The notes under the pieces: generated by a model
The model's database searches: none
What the model saw: the letters and a program-made list of their open reading frames with translations, nothing else
Told to the model about the DNA's origin: nothing
From: Candidatus Campbellbacteria bacterium
GTDB lineage: Bacteria > Patescibacteriota > Minisyncoccia > Phycocordibacterales > EsbW-18
Length of the DNA: 64,000 nucleotides
Assembly: GCA_024653945.1 (NCBI GenBank)
Contig: JANLIT010000004.1
Coordinates: forward strand, 13,281-77,280
Direction of reading: 5' to 3'
Part shown: piece after piece, positions 3,672-55,088 of the stretch
Layout of the letters: the number at the start of each line of letters is the position of its first letter
Numbering within the stretch: the stretch's first letter is position 1
Position numbers and translations under genes: made by a program

Positions 3672-4754
3672 TTACACAATCAATAAATCTTTTGCGAGAA
3701 GAAGATAGTTGAAGTACGACAAGAAGACAATCAAAATAATGAGTGCGATGCCATGAGAAAATTCACGCGAGTGTCTTTTGTGTACTTGAAAGAGAACCAT
3801 CAACAATGTCACAAAAGCAAGTGCGAGTCCGATGATGATGTATCCCCAACGAACCACGGCTCGTGGTTGTGCTAAAAACTTCTCCCACGCATTTGTATAC
3901 GAAATTCGTTCAACGGGCATAATGACCTCCTCCTTAACTGAAGCTCCTGCCGTATTCGCATCTCGCGCTGGGGTAAACTCCTGTGCTAATGAAACATCTT
4001 GGGCCCCTTCTGGAGCTGGAGCCGGTACTTGGGTCACTGCTGTTGGGGTCACCTCCTGAACTACCACTGGCTCTGAAACGGTCTGCTGGGCTACAGCCAC
4101 GGTAGCTCCCTGTACCTCCTGTGTGCTCGCAACGGCAAGCGTAGGGGCAGTTTGAGCAATCACGGGGGCAACCGCGACTTGTGCTGGCGTACCAAAAAGC
4201 TGAACGACAAAAATGGTCTTCCTGTCCTTGTATTGCCCTGGGACAGCGGCAATACCTATTTCAGTAAAGGTCCCATTCATGATGTTTTCTCGGTGTCCTG
4301 GAGAGTTCATCCATGCTTGTTCAACGTCACCCGAGTCAACAAAGTTCACCGCCAAGTTTTCTCCCGCATTCACAAAATTGTATCCCGCTCGGTAAAACCA
4401 ATACCACGGATTGAGTCCGTCGGGACTTGTGTGTGCAAAATATTCGTTTTCCGCCATGTGCTCCGCCTTCATGCGTGCCGCCTTTTCCAAAATCGGACTC
4501 ACCGTCAAATCAGAAAGTCCTTCTGCTTCTCGGTCCTTGTTTGCAAGGTCAACAAGCACTCCGGGAACAACCGCTGCTGTAAATTCAATACTCGTACGAA
4601 TGAGAAGCGCTTGGAATACAGAAAAACCAAACGTGAGCACGAGAATCGTGGTAAGCGCAACAATACTTGCATCACGAACCATGTGTGGCTTGTGGTCGTT
4701 GCCTTCGTGCGGAATGAAGTAATCTTTAATATGTTTTCGCATAGCTGTTAGCAT
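3672..4754 (-). CDS. CAP/SCP (YkwD-like) domain membrane protein with a Thr/Val/Ala/Pro-rich linker
   Basis: CAP-domain motifs HTSPDG, GENLA, WMNSPGHRENIM; N- and C-terminal hydrophobic segments. Confidence 0.6.
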   Translation of the reverse strand: MLTAMRKHIKDYFIPHEGNDHKPHMVRDASIVALTTILVLTFGFSVFQALLIRTSIEFTAAVVPGVLVDLANKDREAEGLSDLTVSPILEKAARMKAEHMAENEYFAHTSPDGLNPWYWFYRAGYNFVNAGENLAVNFVDSGDVEQAWMNSPGHRENIMNGTFTEIGIAAVPGQYKDRKTIFVVQLFGTPAQVAVAPVIAQTAPTLAVASTQEVQGATVAVAQQTVSEPVVVQEVTPTAVTQVPAPAPEGAQDVSLAQEFTPARDANTAGASVKEEVIMPVERISYTNAWEKFLAQPRAVVRWGYIIIGLALAFVTLLMVLFQVHKRHSREFSHGIALIILIVFLSYFNYLLLAKDLLIV

Positions 4755-12454: not shown

Positions 12455-12814
12455 ATGTATATGATTAGTGACCTACCTTTTTGGGTAGGCTATTAAAAAC
12501 GTTTTTTATAAAAATACCCCTGTGTACAACTAATTATCCCTCTACAAACCGTCTCCACCTCGGAGATCAAATTTTTCTAAAGATTACACCGTCATTTTAA
12601 TCTAGTCAAGCCCCACAAGTCAAAGACATTTTTAAAGATTTTGTGTATAGACGGTGGATAATAATACAATACAAAAGAATAATTGTGTCAAACGACTTTC
12701 CTGTTCATTGACAAAATTCTTTTTACTCATTTTGATAATTTTCTTTTTTCTCACCCCATCCTTTTCAACACAACAAAAAGAGTTCAATCCCCCACCCCAC
12801 CAAGATTAATATCT

Positions 12815-12852
12815 CCCAAAGGTTAAACCTTCGCAAAGGTTTAACCTTTGGG
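12815..12852. repeat. REP-like palindromes (2 copies) of the family CAAAGGTT(T)AAACCTTYG
   Basis: caaaggttaaaccttcg followed by caaaggtttaacctttgg; the same palindrome family flanks the RAYT gene. Confidence 0.65.
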
Positions 12853-12867
12853 TACCATACATATCCA

Positions 12868-12996
12868 TAAAGGACATTATAAAAGACATTTAAATATGGA
12901 TGCGATGTTTATATTTTTATAAAGGACATAAAGGACATTATCTCGCCCCACCTTCCACCACCAAAGGTTAAACCTTTGGGCGTTGCGTCCTTTATA
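12868..12996. promoter_or_regulatory. array of five TAAAGGACAT-like direct/inverted repeats in the intergenic region upstream of the giant adhesin gene
   Basis: taaaggacat at 12868, 12920 and 12929; taaaagacat at 12879; inverted copy gtcctttata at 12987. Confidence 0.35.
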
Positions 12997-18758: not shown

Positions 18759-19130
18759 CTACCACAACCACTCCCACAACCTACCCCACCACCCAACTTC
18801 CACTTCTTCTGTACTCGACGCTTCTTCATCATTGATGAGTATAATCACTTTTTCTCCAGATTTAGCAATACTATATCGTTCGCGTAACTTTGATTCAACA
18901 CCCGCAACTGTTTCCATAGATTCTATTTCAGAAGAAAGAAATTCCTTGCGTTGTATAAGATCTTCATACTGTCCTTGTACACGCGCACGTGCCTCTTCTG
19001 CTTGTTCTTTTTTTTGAAAAATATCCCAGAGCTCTTTTCCACCAATAAACAGTAGCCCAAGTAATACTGCGATAGTAACGTTTGAGTAGAGTAACTTTCG
19101 AGCTCGTTGTCGTTGTCTAAAGTCTGCCAT
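18759..19130 (-). CDS. FtsB/DivIC-like septum-formation initiator family protein (membrane-anchored coiled coil)
   Basis: N-terminal TM helix followed by a coiled-coil segment; roughly 120 aa. Confidence 0.35.
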   Translation of the reverse strand: MADFRQRQRARKLLYSNVTIAVLLGLLFIGGKELWDIFQKKEQAEEARARVQGQYEDLIQRKEFLSSEIESMETVAGVESKLRERYSIAKSGEKVIILINDEEASSTEEVEVGWWGRLWEWLW

Positions 19131-22904: not shown

Positions 22905-23402
22905 CACGTATACTTCTGAAGCTTGTACAGGGCAATCGCGCCTGTGTTCTTTCACAGAGTGAGGAAAGTCCGAACATGTGCCAATTTTGCCTACCGAAGG
23001 TAGTTGTAACAATTGAGCATCCCGCCGAAACACTTTAGTGTGAAGGCGGGGCCCTATAACTTTTTGAAGTTACAATGGGACGCTTGAACGTGCAAACATC
23101 TTCGGTGGGTGAAATTAGCAGGACGGTAGTGGGTAACGCCCACCATACGCAAGTATAGAGGTACGAGCAGTGACGGTTTGTGTGGCAACGCACAAACAAT
23201 CCCTTGTGGATTATTTCGGTGGCAACATCGAAGTGAAACGGCAAAATCCTTACCTACATGCAAGGTCGTGCCATATTTTTGTTTTACAAAAACATGGAGA
23301 ACCGCAAAGACATCGTGTGTAAATACGATGCAAGATAAATGATTGTCACCAAGCGCTCGCAAGAGAGTGCTGGTACAGAATTCGGCTTACACGTACAAGT
23401 AC
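22905..23402 (+). ncRNA. rnpB: RNase P RNA (bacterial type, rnpB), about 500 nt
   Basis: Conserved P4 strands GAGGAAAGTCCG (22961-) and ACAGAATTCGGCTTA (23374-); P1 pairing cttgtac/gtacaag; a terminator follows at 23409-23436. Confidence 0.75.
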
Positions 23403-23408
23403 TATCAT

Positions 23409-36577: not shown

Positions 36578-36605
36578 TTGACAATCCTATTGTTTGTGAT
36601 ATACT
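36578..36605 (+). promoter_or_regulatory. sigma70-like promoter (TTGACA-N16-TATACT with an extended -10 TG)
   Basis: ttgaca at 36578-36583 and tatact at 36600-36605; about 100-nt leader with an AAAGGAG RBS before the ATG at 36709. Confidence 0.55.
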
Positions 36606-36708
36606 GTGTCTCGGCAGTTCTTTGACATCATGAATTTGGAAATTCATCTCGCAAGGGATTGAATATATCAGAAAACAAACAACCTCACTCTCTCGAAAGG
36701 AGAACACC

Positions 36709-37560
36709 ATGGCTATCATCCGCACGGGCTTCGTGATGGAGCTCTTTGAGGCAGTCGCCGCCCGCTTGGGCGTCGACTGGTTGGTCGACAAGGGAAAGAA
36801 GTCAACCACCGAAACTCCATCAGCCACACAAGCAAGTGACCAGAAAGAAGACCGCATGGACTGGCACTTGCTCATCAACAACGACAGTGTATTGCCCTTG
36901 AAGAATCGGAAGATTCTTCATGAGGCAGTCGAGAAGTTGTCGCCAGACGACCGTGATCGTGCCGAGCAAGCTATCGGCAAGGTCCTCTCGGATGGGCGTG
37001 ATGGCTTCTTCAAGGCGCGGTCCGTTGTCACCATGACACAGAAGAGTTCCGAATCCCGTAAGGGGGACGACTCGAAAACCGTCAAGGAGACGACTGAGTC
37101 GTCGAAGTCAGGTGTGGCAAAGACAGTGAAAGAAACGACCGAGTCCCACAAAGGAGGCGACTCGAAGTCAGCACGTGAGCCAGTGACTCGGGAAGTATAT
37201 CCGAAAGGTTTTGAACCCGAGAGTCTCACCGTTGAGTTCCTCAGGAGCTCAACAAACTCACTAGAGGCGGCCGATCTGTTCCTCGCGATGCTTCTCCAGA
37301 AGTCTCGCACCCAGCAGGCACGAGAAGCTGCTAAGAAAGCGCTCGATCAGGTTGAGAAGTTTGTTGGGAACAAGCTCTGGTGGTTCTTCGGAACGTACCT
37401 TGCTCTTCTCATCATCTCTCTCGTCGGCTGGGTTGTCTGCTTCAGCGCAGTCATCACCAGCCCCGAAGCATTCTCCACGTTCATGTGGGGTCTCGTGTGG
37501 TTCGCCCTCTTCGTCGCTCTCTCGACGCCAATCGCAAAACTTCTACTTCCCAAAGAGTAA
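36709..37560 (+). CDS. hypothetical membrane protein with internal repeats (high-GC segment)
   Basis: Repeats DSKTVKETTESSKSG/VAKTVKETTESHKGG; two C-terminal TM helices; GC clearly above the window average. Confidence 0.45.
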   Translation: MAIIRTGFVMELFEAVAARLGVDWLVDKGKKSTTETPSATQASDQKEDRMDWHLLINNDSVLPLKNRKILHEAVEKLSPDDRDRAEQAIGKVLSDGRDGFFKARSVVTMTQKSSESRKGDDSKTVKETTESSKSGVAKTVKETTESHKGGDSKSAREPVTREVYPKGFEPESLTVEFLRSSTNSLEAADLFLAMLLQKSRTQQAREAAKKALDQVEKFVGNKLWWFFGTYLALLIISLVGWVVCFSAVITSPEAFSTFMWGLVWFALFVALSTPIAKLLLPKE

Positions 37561-37570
37561 GGAGTAGGTC

Positions 37571-38431
37571 ATGAACGAAAAAGATTTGCCGAAAATCATC
37601 GGCGCACTCCTCTCAGGAGTAGTCCTCTTTATCCTCATGACGTACATGGGGGTAACGAACGGTTTTCTGAAGATTCTTGTTGTTGTACTTCTCCTCCTGT
37701 CGTTTTTCAGCGACAGGTTTGGAAATGCTGGCAAGAAGTTGCGTACCATCTTCAGCATCGCGACGGCTGTTGTGTTTCTCCTTTCGTGGGGATACACTGC
37801 AGCAACTGCAACATGGGGAAAGCACGAGCTCCAGGTGGCCATGCCACGTGAAATCTTTAACTCGGAGAGTCCTCTGCCGAAAGCAGGAGAAAATCCGACT
37901 ACGGGTGCCACATCGAAATTCATCCGTCTTCCCGACGGAACGCTCAAGCCCGTTCCACTTTCGTGGAAACGCGACCAGCGAACGGGGTTGGAGATCCCAA
38001 ATCCTGGGACCGTCGAGTACTGGAACCAACTCAACGAGTACAACGCTCAGGAAGCCCGCAAGACCACCACTCCGGTAGAGTACCGGTTTTGCTGGAGCAA
38101 GCCGAAGGAGGTCAAAGGTTACCGTCCAGACCTCCGACAGAAGTGTCTCCCTATGCGAATCAACGCATGGAGCGGTGGGTACATCAACATCTCCGTCTTC
38201 CACCTCTCAGGAGGTGAAACGAAGGAGCAGGTGTACTCCATGAATCGGCCCGAAGGGACCGGCACATGGAAGAACACCGACGGAAGTGGCGGACACGGGG
38301 TGTGGGAAGAGCTTCCCCTCCCAGAAGGAACCAACACAAAGATGTTGGGAAGACTCAAAGATGAGACCCAGAAGGACGACGGGTGGTTCAGTTTTGTCAT
38401 CACCCCAAAGTCCACCACCCCAAGTTCATGA
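37571..38431 (+). CDS. hypothetical membrane-anchored protein (high-GC segment)
   Basis: N-terminal TM helices followed by a soluble domain; same GC-rich composition as the upstream gene. Confidence 0.45.
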   Translation: MNEKDLPKIIGALLSGVVLFILMTYMGVTNGFLKILVVVLLLLSFFSDRFGNAGKKLRTIFSIATAVVFLLSWGYTAATATWGKHELQVAMPREIFNSESPLPKAGENPTTGATSKFIRLPDGTLKPVPLSWKRDQRTGLEIPNPGTVEYWNQLNEYNAQEARKTTTPVEYRFCWSKPKEVKGYRPDLRQKCLPMRINAWSGGYINISVFHLSGGETKEQVYSMNRPEGTGTWKNTDGSGGHGVWEELPLPEGTNTKMLGRLKDETQKDDGWFSFVITPKSTTPSS

Positions 38432-45665: not shown

Positions 45666-46292
45666 CTACACCTGTGGAGAAAGCACAATAACCTCACCCT
45701 CTTTTTCAATCACTTCTTTTTTTCGCAAAGTTACCTTGTCTGTTGCCGAAGCCCCCGTTTCTCCCTCTTCTTTAAGAAACGCCTTGAGTGTGTCTGCTGT
45801 GTAGTGCATTGGAATCACCACATGTGGTTCAAGAGAAACGGAAAGTTTGTGAGCCGCACGCGCATCAAGAACGCCGTCTCCACCAATAGGAAGAAAGAGA
45901 ATGTCAACATCATCCAGCACTTCATACAACTCTGAAGAAAGTTGTCCATCAGAAAGTGCACCACAAAAACACATCTTCATATCTTCCAATGTAACGAGGT
46001 ACACCGTATTGAGTCTCTCTTTTCCGTCATACATACTCTTTGACGAATATCCGCGAATCACAATACCATTGAGTTCATATTCTCCTGGCCCACTGATAAC
46101 TAGAGGACTGGCATCTCCGCGTGCAACCGTTTCCGCACCATTCATATCGGGGTGGTTCACCGAAACAAGCACAACATCTGCACCGTACGATGTTGCGGTG
46201 TGTTTTGATTTCTTGGATACGGGGTTAAATGCGAGGACCGCGTCTCCAAATTGAACTTTAAATGACTCTAGTGTGTTGTACGTAATTATCAT
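45666..46292 (-). CDS. MBL-fold metallo-hydrolase
   Basis: Size and beta-lactamase-fold-like sequence; weak motif support. Confidence 0.45.
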   Translation of the reverse strand: MIITYNTLESFKVQFGDAVLAFNPVSKKSKHTATSYGADVVLVSVNHPDMNGAETVARGDASPLVISGPGEYELNGIVIRGYSSKSMYDGKERLNTVYLVTLEDMKMCFCGALSDGQLSSELYEVLDDVDILFLPIGGDGVLDARAAHKLSVSLEPHVVIPMHYTADTLKAFLKEEGETGASATDKVTLRKKEVIEKEGEVIVLSPQV

Positions 46293-52380: not shown

Positions 52381-53316
52381 TTACTGTTTATACACTGGAT
52401 ATGTTTTTGGATCTATTGTTCGTTCAAAACACACTCGTCCCGAATCGTGAACAAAGTTTCCACTCATACCCCCCATGTCGTAGTACACAGGTGCAGGTGC
52501 TGTTTTTGCCGAATCAAGATTTGCTTGAGCAAACGTCGCACACAATTCAAACGAAAGAGGTTTAAGCACCGTGTATTCATATGATTCTTGTGATTGTGGG
52601 TCAACGGGTGCGCGGTATCCACTAATATCATCAGAAAGTGCACCTAGAGTTGTTGGCAATGCGTTGTGCTTTTGGTAGTAAAGGGTAATCTCCTGTTGAA
52701 CACCCGAAAGGTCGTTCACTCGTTGTTCATCAAAACGAAGCGCACGAACTTGAGATGGTGAGCCCGCAACAACAAGTCCCCACACAACAACTCCAACAAC
52801 TCCAATGACGGCAAGCACGATGAGTGTTTTGTTTACTTTTGTATCCTTTGACTCTGCACGACGTAAATCATAGAAGTAGTAGGCAAAGATAATTCCAGCA
52901 ACAACAAATACTGAAAGCATTTTCCAAATAAACCGAGATGAAATTTCTCCACCAAGGTATGTATTCACCAGCGCGATAATGTCACCCGCAACCGCCGCAC
53001 CAGCAATAAAGAGTGTGAAGTACACAAACCATTTACGAATAGCGAGTTGATACTTGGCAACATCGCGAGCTATATCTTTTCGGATGAGCCACGAAAGCAC
53101 GATGTACAAAGGAAATGCAACAAGGAGTGTTGACATAGCAAATCGCATACCACTTGTTGCCCACGATGACATGTACTGTGGATTCAATGCGTCGGGAAGT
53201 AGGGTGTTGATAATACTAAAAAAAATCGCAATAAGGGCACCCGCAGATGCATAGAGCGCTACCGCCGTGCCAAGATACATAAAGAAGTCCTTTGGCGTCA
53301 TTTTTGGTTTATCCAT
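52381..53316 (-). CDS. hypothetical multi-pass membrane protein with a C-terminal soluble domain
   Basis: 4-5 TM helices; shares the 5' leader motif described in the findings. Confidence 0.4.
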   Translation of the reverse strand: MDKPKMTPKDFFMYLGTAVALYASAGALIAIFFSIINTLLPDALNPQYMSSWATSGMRFAMSTLLVAFPLYIVLSWLIRKDIARDVAKYQLAIRKWFVYFTLFIAGAAVAGDIIALVNTYLGGEISSRFIWKMLSVFVVAGIIFAYYFYDLRRAESKDTKVNKTLIVLAVIGVVGVVVWGLVVAGSPSQVRALRFDEQRVNDLSGVQQEITLYYQKHNALPTTLGALSDDISGYRAPVDPQSQESYEYTVLKPLSFELCATFAQANLDSAKTAPAPVYYDMGGMSGNFVHDSGRVCFERTIDPKTYPVYKQ

Positions 53317-53428: not shown

Positions 53429-53456
53429 TTGACAAACAAACATGGTCTGCTATACT
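53429..53456 (+). promoter_or_regulatory. strong sigma70-like promoter (TTGACA-N16-TATACT)
   Basis: ttgaca at 53429-53434 and tatact at 53451-53456. Confidence 0.55.
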
Positions 53457-53462
53457 GTATCT

Positions 53463-53915
53463 ACCTTCAGCAGGCACGGGTTGCCCAGCTTGCATGAGAA
53501 GGTATCGTTCTTCGTGGGACAGCCCAACGAGGCTCCCACAGACAACCAACTACAACAACCTGGCTCAAAAGGAGGTTCGAACTAGATACCCTTGGCTACC
53601 AAGAGCAAGGGCTGGTCAAACAAGTACTAGAAGAGTACCTCGCCACCGACAACACACGATCTTCTCGCTTCTTGTGAGACAGAACGGCGGTACCACTCAA
53701 AAGGAGGGCCTGCTAGTGCGTGATTAGTGAAGGCGCTTGCGAGTGTAAGGAGAGAGTTTCGCGCCGCGAAACTACAAATAAACCCTCTCACTTGACGGAC
53801 TGTTAGCGGGTGTCCGCATCAAGTACTCGCACAGCTTGAGTTAAAAAGGGTTGGATACACAGAGACGCAGTGCGGGGGCCGGGCAGTCAGCGATGACTCC
53901 CCGGCCCTTTTTCAT
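53463..53915 (+). ncRNA. candidate structured ncRNA of unknown class, bounded by a consensus promoter and a terminator
   Basis: About 450 nt with higher GC than its flanks; no convincing ORF (only an Arg-rich 77-aa frame); terminator hairpin gggccggg...cccggccc followed by TTTTTC at 53872-53915. Confidence 0.4.
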
Positions 53916-53993
53916 TTCATGCAACATTTTCAGACGTCCGACTTCTCTACAGGAAGGTCGGGCTCCCTTGTTACATGTTACATGACTTGTAAA

Positions 53994-55088
53994 CTAGATT
54001 TTAAACTCGACGACGTCGCCGTCTTTGACGATGTATTCCTTCCCTTCTGTACGTACCAAACCCTTTTCACGAGCTGTTGCGTATGAGCCGGCATCAATTA
54101 AATCTTTCCAAAAAACAACCTCAGCACGAATAAATTTTTGTAAAAAGTCCGTGTGAATCGCAGCGCCAGCTTGCGGTGCAGTGCTTCCCTTCTTTATTGT
54201 CCACGCACGTGTTTCATCTTCTCCAGTCGTCAAGAATGTCATCAAATCAAGAAGTGTAAAACCAGAAACAATTAAATCATCAATACCACCACGTACTGAA
54301 AGCTCTGTGCGCATGGCAACACGCTCGTCATATTCCATATCTTTCAAATCAGATTCTGTATTTGCGTCCACCACAACCCATACCGCTTTTTCTTTTTCAA
54401 AAAATGCAAGCAATGCCGTCCACCGTTCATCTTTGAGTTCATCTAAATTTTTTCCACCTGATTGTGTGTTAAGTGCGTAGAGCATCTTTTTCATCGTCAA
54501 AAGGTTGAGGAGTTTCACTTTTTCAAACTCTTCTTCGGTGAGTGCTGTGGTTCGAGCAAATGCCTCGGATTCAAGCACTACCTTCACCTTCTCCAGCCCG
54601 TCTTTCTCAACCTGTGCCTCACGTGAGCCACTACGGACCTCCTTCTCAACACTTCCGAGACGCTTCGTTACTACCTGCATATCTGCCAAAATAAGCTCTA
54701 AATTAATCACCCCAATGTCTCGTACTGGGTCAATGGTGTTTGATACGTGAATAATGTCAGCATTTTCAAATATACGCACCACCTGCACAATCGCATCAAC
54801 TTCGCGAATGTGGGAGAGAAATTGGTTTCCAAGTCCCTGCCCTTCCGATGCGCCCTTTACAAGTCCCGCGATGTCCACAAACTCAACGGCCGCAGGAATT
54901 GTTTTTTTTGATTGTGAAAACGTTGAAAGAACGGTGAGACGTTCGTCGGGTACTCGAACAACACCAACTGACGGATCAATGGTGCAGAACGGATAATTTG
55001 CGGCATCAACACTTTGACGTGTAAGCGCATTAAAAAGCGTCGACTTACCAACGTTGGGAAGACCAACAATACCAAGCGAGAGTCCCAT
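53994..55088 (-). CDS. ychF: ribosome-binding ATPase YchF (Obg-family GTPase)
   Basis: GIVGLPNVGKSTLFNALT; YchF-specific coiled-coil and TGS domains; 364 aa. Confidence 0.85.
   Translation of the reverse strand: MGLSLGIVGLPNVGKSTLFNALTRQSVDAANYPFCTIDPSVGVVRVPDERLTVLSTFSQSKKTIPAAVEFVDIAGLVKGASEGQGLGNQFLSHIREVDAIVQVVRIFENADIIHVSNTIDPVRDIGVINLELILADMQVVTKRLGSVEKEVRSGSREAQVEKDGLEKVKVVLESEAFARTTALTEEEFEKVKLLNLLTMKKMLYALNTQSGGKNLDELKDERWTALLAFFEKEKAVWVVVDANTESDLKDMEYDERVAMRTELSVRGGIDDLIVSGFTLLDLMTFLTTGEDETRAWTIKKGSTAPQAGAAIHTDFLQKFIRAEVVFWKDLIDAGSYATAREKGLVRTEGKEYIVKDGDVVEFKI

Follow-up and report, generated by a model that had tools for sequence, protein, structure and literature searches.

A compact transcription unit between two minus-strand genes

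In the 64-kb window, that is, the whole stretch of DNA that was analysed, a unit of ~450 nt lies on the + strand, from ~53462 to 53912, between two genes that are both on the - strand. A first-pass annotation of the sequence had proposed here a candidate structured ncRNA of unknown class, in a promoter-to-terminator unit of ~450 nt in which a TTGACA-N16-TATACT promoter and a GC-hairpin terminator bracket a G+C-enriched segment. Both signals are indeed present, and so is the enrichment, with a G+C content of 0.52-0.545 inside the unit vs 0.37-0.46 in the flanks. The features of the locus are the following, helices being predicted from the fold and alignment described below.

53429-53456, + strand: sigma-70-type promoter, 11/12 consensus matches, TG present; conserved in all relatives
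53462-53504, + strand: P1, three-part 5' hairpin (local fold -19.2 kcal/mol)
53506-53514, + strand: pyrimidine box CGUUCUUCG, invariant in all 5 sequences
53514-53539, + strand: P2, GUGGGAC...GUCCCAC hairpin that encloses a GCC/GGC inner helix; 2 pairs with two-sided change
53540-53576, + strand: A/C-rich unstructured linker with the invariant CCUGGCUCA and SD-like element 1 (SD1), AAAAGGAGGU
53581-53616, + strand: P3, hairpin ACUAG-AUA-CCCUUG...CAAGGG-CUGGU, 100% paired, apical part of variable length
53617-53695, + strand: conserved linker CAAACAAGUACUAGA, then a central region of low conservation (alignment columns 200-280)
53680-53687, + strand: purine box CAGAACGG, complementary to the pyrimidine box as read from the sequence
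53696-53730, + strand: SD-like element 2 (SD2), CUCAAAAGGAGG at 53696-53707, and a putative mini-ORF; SD2 is followed by GUG in all four lineages
53717-53741, + strand: 5' strand of P4 (UGCGU) and hairpin P5, whose loop and 3' strand AGGCGCUU are invariant
53749-53789, + strand: P6, outer helix GGAGAGAGUU/AACCCUCUC and inner hairpin UCGC-GCC-GCGA
53790-53824, + strand: P7, hairpin ACUUGA-CGGAC...GUCCG-CA-UCAAGU; 3 pairs with two-sided change
53825-53874, + strand: variable 3' linker in the alignment, holding the 3' strand of P4 (53865-53869)
53875-53912, + strand: intrinsic terminator, G+C-rich stem of 14 bp capped by a GCGA (GNRA) tetraloop, then U5
53936-53963, + strand: second hairpin GUCCGACUUC...GAAGGUCGGGC past the terminator, absent in L081, L084 and L115

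The promoter consists of the -35 hexamer TTGACA (53429-53434), a 16-nt spacer and TATACT (53451-53456), with TG at 53448-53449 completing an extended -10 element TGcTATACT (53448-53456), and transcription probably starts near 53462-53464. Sites with at least 11 of the 12 consensus matches are rare, as only 5 were found on both strands of the window, against a mean of 1.6 in block shuffles. At the other end, the terminator sequence GGGGCCGGGCAGUCAGCGAUGACUCCCCGGCCC is followed by UUUUU and folds with -28.2 kcal/mol (z = -4.2). An internal mismatch in the stem kept a simple scan for terminators from detecting it. Past it, the second hairpin at 53936-53963 may belong to the unit, and resembles a 'hairpin + GGUCGGGCUC' motif of other RNAs at the locus. 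The gene ychF is convergent with the RNA, its stop codon lying 7-80 nt past the terminator. We rejected a riboswitch or another cis-regulatory leader, given that no gene follows on the same strand and that the unit is closed by a terminator of its own.

The unit is kept at a syntenic site and other RNAs replace it in further genomes

Homologues were found at the same site, between ychF and the DUF5671 gene, in four relatives, namely L081 (Logan SRR33452767), L115 (ENA ERZ965181), L084 (GCA_964631485.1) and L085 (SRR14932662), where the order is ychF - RNA - DUF5671 - leuS - sigma factor. Both the promoter and the terminator are conserved in the four of them, and 33 of the 34 positions of the terminator stem-loop are identical across all homologue sequences. 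Between lineages the RNA is 64-74% identical, with long invariant blocks. By comparison, third codon positions of ychF are 48-62% identical between lineages, and the non-transcribed spacer 46-55% in five of the six pairs (0.82 in the L081/L115 pair), which supports conservation of the RNA above neutral divergence. Poor conservation in relatives together with a lack of covariation, which the first-pass annotation had named as an outcome that would count against an ncRNA, is not what these genomes display.

The family is nevertheless narrow (four lineages) and fast-evolving, being limited to a small clade of Candidatus Campbellbacteria. Searches with nhmmer and blastn over 80 ychF-anchored loci, which were too distant, returned no homologue. 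A DUF5671-anchored metagenome scan yielded relatives of at most 48% identity, all without the RNA, and pattern scans of viral contigs gave chance matches only with a 15-mer and zero matches with a 22-mer. In related genomes the same site is occupied by other, unrelated RNAs, with a tandem pair in one genome, and the genes downstream of these RNAs differ (NUDIX, VKOR, ABC transporter). When our two covariance models, R1 and R2, were run against these other RNAs with filters on and off, only marginal matches were obtained, in L088 (E = 0.05) and in L119 unit 2 (E = 0.4), so that no homology to the 'type B', L088, L089 or L092 RNAs was demonstrable with these models.

Covariation supports a fold of at least seven helices

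Folding of the whole unit compared with shuffled sequences gave z = -3.0 for the + strand and z = -2.0 for the - strand, the + strand being the better of the two, and the G-U pairs in the helices fit the + strand only. The comparative alignment for which the first-pass annotation had called supports a model with at least seven conserved helices, P1-P3 forming a 5' domain and P4-P7 a 3' domain on either side of a variable middle part.

In the 5' domain, the outermost part of P1 (P1a, UACCUUC with GAAGGUA) is invariant, P1b (GCAGGC with GCUUGC) has 3 pairs with two-sided change, relatives having GUGGC/GCCAC, and P1c is GGG-UUG-CCC. Variants of P2 comprise U-A, C-G and A-U pairs, a shorter hairpin standing in its place in L084. 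Within P3 a U-G pair becomes C-G and a G-C pair becomes G-U, while the apical loop ranges from 7 to 21 nt in relatives. In the 3' domain, the UGCGU strand of P4 pairs with ACGCA at 53865-53869 (GUGC/GCAC in relatives, CUGUGG/CCACGG in L081), and in relatives this 3' strand touches or runs into the first G residues of the terminator stem. P5 is 90% paired, with G-C, A-U and G-U variants. P6 combines an invariant 11-nt internal loop, AACUACAAAUA, with 4 pairs changed on both sides (AGGGG/CCUUU in L115, and a C-G to G-U change in L081). The changes in P7 include CUCUG/CAGAG and CGGAU/AUCCG in L084, and its L115 version is shorter.

Overall, 97.5% of the cells of P1-P3 are paired, with 6 pairs changed on both sides, and 93.3% of those of P5-P7, with 8 such pairs. 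None of 500 shuffles equalled either domain. The total of 14 base pairs that changed on both sides with pairing kept comes from 4 independent lineages and from alignments fitted to the model, which makes the statistics weak. When the 3' partners were shifted by 1-3 columns, only ~40% of cells paired (36-50%).

The unit has no coding signature and matches no known RNA family

As noted in the first-pass annotation, the sole long ORF in the unit is an Arg-rich frame of 77 aa (53494-53727). We rejected it as a gene, since its ATG is missing in relatives, indels shift its frame and there is no codon pattern; it appears to be an artefact of the G+C-rich sequence, as does a 96-aa ORF in the L092 counterpart. 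In the alignment of the unit, mismatches are spread equally over the three codon positions and indels are not multiples of three. Neither an ORF shared among the homologues nor a Pfam match in the unit was found, so a type I toxin mRNA or another small-protein gene was discarded as well, and the earlier verdict of no convincing ORF stands. The short frame ending in SSRFL-stop that had been pointed out as possibly tag-like does exist, but its suggested role does not hold, as the frame is not conserved in relatives.

Searches against Rfam 15 gave no match in the unit, whether at gathering threshold over the whole window or with relaxed filters and E up to 10 over an 800-nt region, and none in the unit counterparts of 26 related loci (E up to 1 or 0.1). 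The covariance-model scan that had been advised therefore brought up no known family, and we consider the RNA as the founder of a new family outside Rfam 15, a conclusion supported by these searches. The families dismissed earlier by eye stay dismissed. ARAGORN predicts no tmRNA in the window, the Rfam models tmRNA and tmRNA_permuted do not match at E up to 10, the RNA begins with a local hairpin and closes with a terminator, without T-arm or CCA, and no frame that could serve as a tag is conserved, indels shifting the frame. SRP models gave no match at E up to 10 either. Nor did 6S RNA match, and the consensus fold has several domains and local terminal hairpins; the short RNAs found at the locus in relatives are not rod-like either. 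RNase P RNA is encoded elsewhere in the window, at 22920-23405 on the + strand (E = 8.5e-20, 71.8 bits vs a Rfam gathering score of 100), and has no match in the unit. Taken together, conservation, compensatory pairs, the lack of coding signature and the lack of Rfam, ARAGORN or Pfam matches uphold the initial proposal of a structured ncRNA without known family, and support an independent gene at ~53462-53912 (+) whose predicted product is a structured non-coding RNA of ~450 nt.

We also rejected a CsrA sponge, the two conserved AAGGAG tracts lying in linkers, vs at least 6 motifs mostly in loops. With tblastn, CsrA, Hfq and NusB gave nothing but chance matches in the window, which is part of the genome, the CsrA one falling within valS. 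A trans-target search with the invariant loop ACUACAAAU revealed no enrichment, and our search of the literature on CPR ncRNAs found nothing relevant. By eye, CCUGGCUCAG is identical to the site of primer 27F, and GGCUGGUCA looks like the 3' end of 16S rRNA. Rfam, rRNA models included, gave no rRNA match in the region, so that a likeness to 16S rRNA termini is unproven.

Two invariant SD-like elements and a putative mini-ORF

The two AAAAGGAGG elements seen in the first-pass annotation are located at 53567 and 53699 on the + strand, both within an identical 12-mer, CTCAAAAGGAGG. The whole window holds 3 copies of AAAAGGAGG vs 0.59 expected. The RNA thereby carries two invariant CUCARAAGGAG elements that are predicted to be accessible, with ensemble means over four homologues of 57-88% unpaired for SD1 and 56-61% for SD2. 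Apart from these two conserved AAGGAG tracts, which are placed in single-stranded linkers, there is one more inside the P6 stem. SD1 has 9 nt of complementarity to the universal 16S rRNA 3' tail (the host's own tail being outside the window), and no ATG, GTG or TTG occurs 4-12 nt downstream of it. SD2 is followed by the mini-ORF GUG CGU GAU UAG (53716-53727), which would encode the peptide MRD, with in-frame stops UAG and UGA, and which shares sequence with the 5' strands of P4 and P5. A GUG and 3-5 codons follow SD2 in four of four lineages (MRD*, MATR*, MRDRK* and MRDR*). The other RNAs at the locus have an SD followed by ATG-initiated mini-ORFs (ME*, MT*, MHIRPPP* and MLARPPP*).

Such elements are scarce in front of the genes of the window, where an SD core precedes 5 of 47 (background 7.6%), 42 lacking it, and where SD matches of at least 5 nt occur at 6 of 47. 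One of the few SD leaders, that of the gene at 36709-37560, is laid out like the beginning of our RNA, with a TTGACA-16-TGnTATACT promoter, a GUUCUU(U/C) box close to the start of the transcript, then a hairpin, an A/C-rich linker and CUC(G/A)AAAGGAG. In that leader, however, the SD is followed by ATG and a 283-aa ORF, whereas SD1 has no start codon and is followed by 330 nt more of conserved structure.

A pyrimidine box with several candidate partners

For the pyrimidine box we see three possible roles, as a boxA-like element, as an anti-SD-like element or as a strand of a long-range helix. Each lineage has a complement of 7-11 bp to it ~170-215 nt downstream, in a distal purine box (CAGAACGG in the window, GGAAGAAC in L081, GAGAACGA in L115 and CCGAGAGGAA in L084), from which we infer a long-range pairing. 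RNAalifold instead pairs the box with AGGAGC of SD2, and in thermodynamic folds its partner is ambiguous and differs between homologues. Since the box is invariant, covariation cannot test its pairing.

A possible ribosome-engaging RNA is the favoured reading

We consider that an independent ncRNA gene whose product may engage ribosomes is the best explanation of the locus as a whole, with a probability of about 0.6. That the RNA acts by engaging the translation machinery, and not by encoding, is in itself a tentative claim that we hold to be less likely than not. Given the SD-leader layout, the two SD-like elements and the mini-ORF, a decoy or 'minigene' mode appears the most likely and is our best guess. 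These features weakly suggest a mechanism in which the 5' third would mimic the scarce mRNA leaders of SD type, with their pyrimidine box, hairpin, A/C-rich linker and strong SD, making the RNA a long-lived decoy or 'minigene' that binds 30S subunits. Ribosomes would perhaps be cycled on the futile mini-ORF after SD2, so that the RNA might titrate or sense translational capacity, and their occupancy could simultaneously remodel the 3' domain. Short minigenes can inhibit translation via peptidyl-tRNA drop-off and tRNA sequestration (PMC2490762). Against ribosome engagement, pairing in P4 and P5, whose 5' strands it forms, would account for the mini-ORF sequence as well. The pattern of an SD, a start and an early stop was recognised post hoc and has a rough chance of ~0.1 per SD, and the SD-like tracts could simply pair with the pyrimidine box, as RNAalifold predicts for SD2. 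The narrow range, the fast turnover and the replacement by different RNAs at the site argue against a core housekeeping role.

A bolder version, which we regard as improbable, makes the RNA a ribosome-directed counterpart of 6S RNA, i.e. a highly transcribed RNA that would set global translational capacity with SD mimics and a futile minigene of 3-5 codons. The mRNAs of the CPR host would then be mostly leaderless or without SD, and the RNA might capture 30S subunits via the little-used anti-SD tail or drain tRNAs by peptidyl-tRNA drop-off. Under this version, the different RNAs found at the site in relatives would be functional analogues, because each has a strong SD and then a mini-ORF.

Among the other explanations, the one that we take most seriously, though the odds are clearly against it, is a structural RNA or RNP scaffold in which ribosomes have no part and the SD likeness is incidental, the purine tracts being internal partners. 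A large central domain would be closed by CGUUCUUCG on pairing with either SD2 or the distal purine box, and a protein partner or the tertiary fold would mediate the action of the RNA. The box complement found in every lineage and the RNAalifold pairing with SD2 agree with such a closure, and the invariant GNRA-capped terminator hairpin and the AACUACAAAUA loop suggest tertiary or protein contacts. However, the predicted partners vary between homologues, the invariance of the box puts its pairing beyond covariation testing, ensemble predictions leave SD1 and SD2 mostly unpaired, and an exact 12-mer duplication together with a 9-nt anti-SD match exceeds the needs of a 6-bp helix. Less likely than either this scaffold or the 6S-like version is a transcript acting in cis or on its locus, as an antitermination cassette resembling rrn leaders, where the 5' hairpin and a boxA-like GUUCUU would drive a processive untranslated transcript, or as a read-through of the terminator antisense to ychF. 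The box does look like boxA (GUUCUUC in the window; UGUUCUUUG, GCUCUUUCAA and CGUUCUUUCCAACA in other RNAs at the site), an element that recruits NusB/E and blocks or promotes Rho termination depending on the context (PMC12360218). The contact of P4 with the terminator stem and the convergent ychF just beyond it also fit. Against this, the boxA likeness refers to a general boxA consensus (there is no rRNA operon in the window or in any fetched locus), the terminator is predicted to be very strong, the other RNAs at the site in relatives face different downstream genes, and a covarying structure of 450 nt exceeds what a read-through switch needs.

We find it very unlikely that the unit is an mRNA or a dual-function RNA, whose product would be an MRD(R) peptide, the 77-aa frame or a small protein with a non-canonical start. 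Strong SD elements, the mini-ORF after SD2 in every lineage and the ATG mini-ORFs of the neighbouring RNA types would suit translation, but variable peptides of 2-5 residues such as MRD and MATR are unlikely as a selected product, the 77-aa frame is not conserved and has no Pfam match, and all of the covariation and most of the conserved sequence fall outside any ORF. Lastly, a highly divergent tmRNA (permuted forms included), 6S, SRP or RNase P RNA overlooked by covariance models is hardly credible. CPR RNAs can diverge, as the low-scoring RNase P RNA of this window illustrates, and the size is near that of tmRNA. Yet even at E up to 10 no Rfam model matched, ARAGORN found none, the ends are local hairpins with neither acceptor stem, T-arm nor CCA, no rod with a central bubble is formed, RNase P RNA is already present elsewhere, and the RNA is absent in more distant relatives and replaced at its site, unlike essential RNAs.

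Comparison with known RNAs and implications

The RNA shares with raiA, OLE, ROOL, GOLLD and the Rfam 'motif' RNAs its own promoter and terminator and a G+C content enriched relative to a genome richer in A+T. As in these orphan ncRNAs, which emerged from comparative analyses of G+C-rich intergenic regions, a covarying multi-helix fold goes with a non-coding nature, a narrow range and an open biochemical role. It matches none of them in sequence or structure, and it is smaller than OLE, ROOL and GOLLD. To our knowledge, SD-like elements and a mini-ORF are not features of raiA, OLE, ROOL or GOLLD.

Mimics and sponges offer another parallel. 6S RNA mimics an open promoter, and CsrB and RsmZ display GGA sites for CsrA, ~18-22 of them in CsrB and ~6-8 in RsmZ. 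Our RNA would likewise display copies of a ribosome-binding site between stable helices, and looks abundant judging from its sequence alone. Unlike 6S, it does not form a rod with a bubble at its centre, and unlike CsrB and RsmZ, which have their sites in hairpin loops, it has 2-3 GGA tracts in linkers and no Rfam match. The strong SD, the start codon and an ORF of 2-7 codons recall minigene RNAs (lambda bar and synthetic ones of 2-8 codons). For the inhibition of translation by minigenes, PMC2490762 cites a paper by Hernandez-Sanchez from 1998. The minigenes known so far are either artificial or oddities of phages and plasmids, and do not lie within a conserved chromosomal RNA of 450 nt, and here the ORF is putative. 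With leaders of rRNA operons and their boxA, the RNA has in common a strong promoter, a hairpin and a G(U/C)UCUU(U/C) box tens of nt into an untranslated transcript, but CGUUCUUCG departs from the boxA consensus, and no rRNA follows.

The genomes of CPR bacteria (Patescibacteria) are tiny, and as far as we know hardly any of their regulatory RNAs has been characterised. With 450 nt, support from covariation and one of the strongest promoters of the window, this RNA offers a concrete entry point. Its most striking feature is the pair of invariant, near-perfect SD mimics, predicted to be accessible, among genes of which nearly nine in ten lack an SD core, which raises the questions of what the anti-SD tail is used for where initiation is SD-less or leaderless, and of whether translation can be regulated by RNA mimicry. 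That unrelated structured RNAs replace one another quickly at a single intergenic site bears on the origin of ncRNA genes. If the RNA is merely a lineage-specific sRNA of ordinary function, it extends the list of RNA families only modestly.

A promoter-to-terminator unit between ychF and the DUF5671 gene

In this Candidatus Campbellbacteria MAG (Paceibacterota, CPR), the candidate RNA (about 53462-53912, +) lies in a gap of 677 nt delimited by two genes:

52381-53316 (-), DUF5671 gene, one flank of the gap
53994-55088 (-), ychF, the other flank of the gap

Every element listed by the first-pass annotation is present, which confirms its observation. First, the promoter consists of TTGACA (53429-53434), a 16-nt spacer and TGcTATACT (53448-53456), matching 11/12 consensus positions, and only 5 sites reach at least 11/12 in the 64 kb (shuffled mean 1.6). 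Second, the terminator GGGGCCGGGCAGUCAGCGAUGACUCCCCGGCCC-UUUUU (53875-53912) folds with -28.2 kcal/mol (z = -4.2) and its hairpin is capped by a GCGA tetraloop. Third, the G+C content is 0.52-0.545 within the unit vs 0.37-0.46 outside. Finally, the two copies of AAAAGGAGG, at 53567 and 53699, are both embedded in an identical 12-mer, CTCAAAAGGAGG.

The RNA is conserved in four lineages

The ychF-anchored loci proved too distant for comparison, and relatives' contigs were found via close DUF5671 protein homologues (57-84% identity). These contigs keep the order ychF, a gap of 600-830 nt, DUF5671, leuS and a sigma factor. A clear homologue, with the same promoter and terminator, occupies the gap in four lineages, that is the window, L081 (Logan SRR33452767), L084/L085 (GCA_964631485.1 and SRR14932662) and L115 (ERZ965181). 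Between lineages the RNA is 64-74% identical, with long invariant blocks, compared to 48-62% for third codon positions of ychF in the same lineages and to 46-55% for the non-transcribed spacer beside the RNA in 5 of the 6 pairs (0.82 for L081/L115). From these comparisons we conclude that the RNA is under purifying selection. Moreover, 33 of the 34 positions of the terminator hairpin are identical across lineages, in contrast to synonymous sites that are only 48-62% identical in the same lineages, a conservation that goes far beyond what termination needs. Searches with a profile HMM and with two covariance models found no additional copies in the window or the other loci, and loci whose DUF5671 protein is at most 48% identical are without the RNA, which points to a narrow family.

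Known families and coding potential

The unit had been described as fitting no known class, and a search of the region against Rfam 15 with relaxed filters and E up to 10 indeed gave no match; at the gathering threshold, the whole window yielded tRNAs only. No tmRNA was found by ARAGORN. The consensus fold has a local hairpin at its 5' end and the terminator at its 3' end, and because these exclude a tRNA-like acceptor stem as well as a closed rod, the earlier view that neither tmRNA nor 6S RNA fits holds. The defining features of tmRNA, 6S RNA, SRP RNA and RNase P RNA are absent from the RNA, as are those of a CsrB-type sponge, a riboswitch leader and a type I toxin mRNA.

The Arg-rich ORF of 77 aa that had been noticed is present (53494-53727) and is not a gene: mismatches to each relative are equal across the three codon positions, and many gaps in the alignment of this frame are not multiples of three. 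Pfam had no match for the unit's ORFs. The suggestion of a tag-like frame ending in 'SSRFL' is not supported, as this frame is not conserved; the four lineages share nothing in their ORF sets. Both frames are by-products of the G+C-rich sequence.

A structure with covarying helices

We built a structure model by running RNAalifold on the four lineages, refining the result manually and realigning to covariance models, which gave the following elements:

53462-53504 (+), P1, a three-part hairpin
53506-53514 (+), invariant pyrimidine box CGUUCUUCG
53514-53539 (+), P2
53540-53576 (+), A/C-rich linker, then CCUGGCUCA, then Shine-Dalgarno (SD)-like element 1 (SD1)
53581-53616 (+), P3
between P3 and SD2 (+), variable middle region
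53696-53707 (+), SD-like element 2 (SD2)
53717-53721 pairing with 53865-53869 (+), P4, closing the 3' domain
53720-53824 (+), P5, P6 and P7
53875-53912 (+), terminator, last element of the fold

Within P6 there is an inner hairpin, and the internal loop of this helix, AACUACAAAUA, is invariant. The covariation check proposed in the first-pass annotation favoured a structured RNA in both domains. In the 5' domain, 97.5% of the cells were paired and 6 pairs were changed on both sides, which 0/500 shuffles reached, and sliding the 3' partners by 1-3 columns lowered pairing to 37-44%. The corresponding values for the 3' domain were 93.3%, 8 pairs and 0/500, with 36-50% paired after sliding. As only four independent lineages are available and pairing was counted on alignments fitted to the structure, these statistics are supportive, not conclusive. 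Helix positions stay constant while sequence and length vary between lineages: P1b is GCAGGC/GCUUGC or GUGGC/GCCAC, P7 is CUUGA/UCAAG or CUCUG/CAGAG, P2 is altered in L084 with its position kept, and the apical part of P3 ranges from 7 to 21 nt. Several G-U pairs would become A-C mismatches if read on the opposite strand, consistent with the strand on which promoter and terminator lie. Together, these comparisons show that the unit is a real gene, independently transcribed, for a structured and non-coding RNA that represents a new family.

SD-like elements in an SD-poor genome

Taking the longest ORF as a guess of the start codon, only 5 of the window's 47 genes show one of the cores GGAG, GAGG and AGGA between -16 and -5 (background 7.6%), and only 6 of 47 carry at least 5 nt complementary to the 16S 3' tail. 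With such starts, this genome seems barely to use Shine-Dalgarno sequences. A TATACT -10 box precedes the ATG of many genes by 6-12 nt, for example 18759-19130 (-), 45666-46292 (-) and 3672-4754 (-), suggesting that leaderless or near-leaderless mRNAs are widespread among the window's genes. The leader (36578-36720, +) of one of the very few SD-led genes, 36709-37560, is laid out as the 5' third of the RNA: behind the promoter TTGACA-16-TGaTATACT come a GUUCUUUGA box and a hairpin, and then an A/C-rich linker leading to CUCGAAAGGAGA. The gene has no Pfam match; its neighbour 37571-38431 is paralogue-like.

SD1 (AAAGGAGGU) has 9 nt complementary to the universal 16S tail and no start codon follows it. 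In each of the four lineages, a GUG lies 4-9 nt past the GGAG core of SD2 and opens a mini-ORF of 3-5 codons (MRD, MATR, MRDRK and MRDR, each followed by a stop) overlapping the 5' strands of P4 and P5. Both SD tracts are predicted to be mostly unpaired.

Short identities to 16S rRNA termini occur at 53559-53568, 53609-53617 and 53755-53761. At the 5' end of 16S, the 27F primer site equals CCUGGCUCA(G); GGCUGGUCA resembles GGCUGGAUCA near the 16S 3' end, and AGAGUUU likewise matches. The Rfam search, whose library includes rRNA models, found no rRNA match in the region, and these identities may be due to chance.

Possible functions

Our main reading, to which we give a probability of about 0.3, is that the RNA mimics an mRNA leader and in this way acts on the translation machinery. 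SD1 and SD2 would bind 30S subunits, making the RNA a stable decoy, and ribosomes would possibly be cycled on the futile mini-ORF; minigenes inhibit translation via peptidyl-tRNA drop-off (PMC2490762). A ribosome on the mini-ORF would unfold P4 and P5, thereby coupling the fold of the 3' domain to translational status. That the RNA is a translational analogue of 6S RNA seems unlikely to us. Closest to it in kind are the orphan structured ncRNAs of G+C-rich intergenic regions, and closest in proposed mechanism are mimic or sponge RNAs (6S, CsrB) and minigene RNAs. This new family is unusual in that SD mimics and a mini-ORF occur together in it, in a genome poor in SD sequences.

Somewhat less plausible than the leader mimic is an RNP scaffold whose purine tracts merely pair with the pyrimidine box. 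In the consensus fold this box can pair with SD2; an alternative partner is a purine box that lies 170-215 nt downstream and whose sequence is lineage-specific with complementarity kept, and thermodynamic predictions give it no single partner. The pyrimidine box also resembles the boxA consensus. BoxA recruits NusB/E (PMC12360218). A cis function, either of boxA type or antisense to ychF, is improbable. We give still less credit to a peptide product. Last comes a divergent known housekeeping RNA, which would have had to escape the relaxed Rfam search; we regard it as highly implausible.

Other RNAs at the same site in relatives

Other relatives have different RNAs at this site; all of them are high in G+C and carry both a consensus promoter and a terminator:

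L083 1073-1626, L086 2385-2923 and L119 1873-2370 (-), type B RNA, 500-550 nt
L088 2714-3000 and L089 2695-3000 (-), short RNAs of ~170-190 nt
L092 2340-3000 (-), RNA of ~560 nt

Rfam gave no match for any of them, and homology to the window's RNA was not detectable; the best marginal matches to R2, one of its covariance models, were weak (L088, E = 0.05; L119, E = 0.4), though located and oriented as expected. Type B RNA, seen in other Campbellbacteria, has a consensus promoter and a 5' hairpin, contains G(U/C)UCUUU boxes as well as a strong SD, and ends in a terminator; RNAalifold found 30 pairs changed on both sides with only 3 sequences. In several of these RNAs a strong SD precedes a mini-ORF (ME, MT, MHIRPPP or MLARPPP, then a stop); the last two, with a polyproline-stop motif, are from 2 of the 3 type B RNAs. 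In L119, the 985-nt gap (1516-2500, -) holds two promoter-to-terminator units in tandem, type B and then a unit resembling the window's RNA, which points to an ancestor with both units at the locus and to later loss of either one in individual lineages. The intergenic site appears, from these loci, to be a hot spot for ncRNA gene turnover. The contigs listed for one lineage, those with protein P0006 (L116, L117 and L118, positions 1-90), all stop ~85 nt upstream of their DUF5671 gene and barely miss the expected RNA position; these assembly breaks may reflect population or strain-level variation at the site, or a repeat.

Other features of the window

RNase P RNA, which had been placed elsewhere in the window, was found at 22920-23405 (+; class A, E = 8.5e-20, 71.8 bits and thus under the Rfam gathering score of 100). 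It is ~120 nt longer than the model and has the appearance of a divergent form of CPR RNase P RNA that would go unnoticed in default annotation. A gap of 862 nt (61166-62027) is free of ORFs. On its - strand lies a perfect 12/12 promoter (61340 to 61312); in addition, the gap has a direct repeat of 30 nt, CGTCCCCAAAAGAAC.GCGG, with copies at 61456 and 61640, and positions 61884-61925 form a perfect 21+21-nt palindrome. Another ncRNA, or else a long structured leader, may lie in this gap. The A+T-rich gap at 12455-12975 (521 nt) has repeated AAAGGTTAAACCTTTGGG palindromes and AAAGGACAT repeats. Finally, 55787-59251 (-) encodes a protein of 1154 aa, probably a surface protein, in which a unit of ~90 aa (TVINDDGGxKQVSDF...GYTAxxWGGDCAANGxVTL) is repeated in tandem about six times; it also has a poly-Asp/Gly tract and, at its C terminus, a transmembrane segment.
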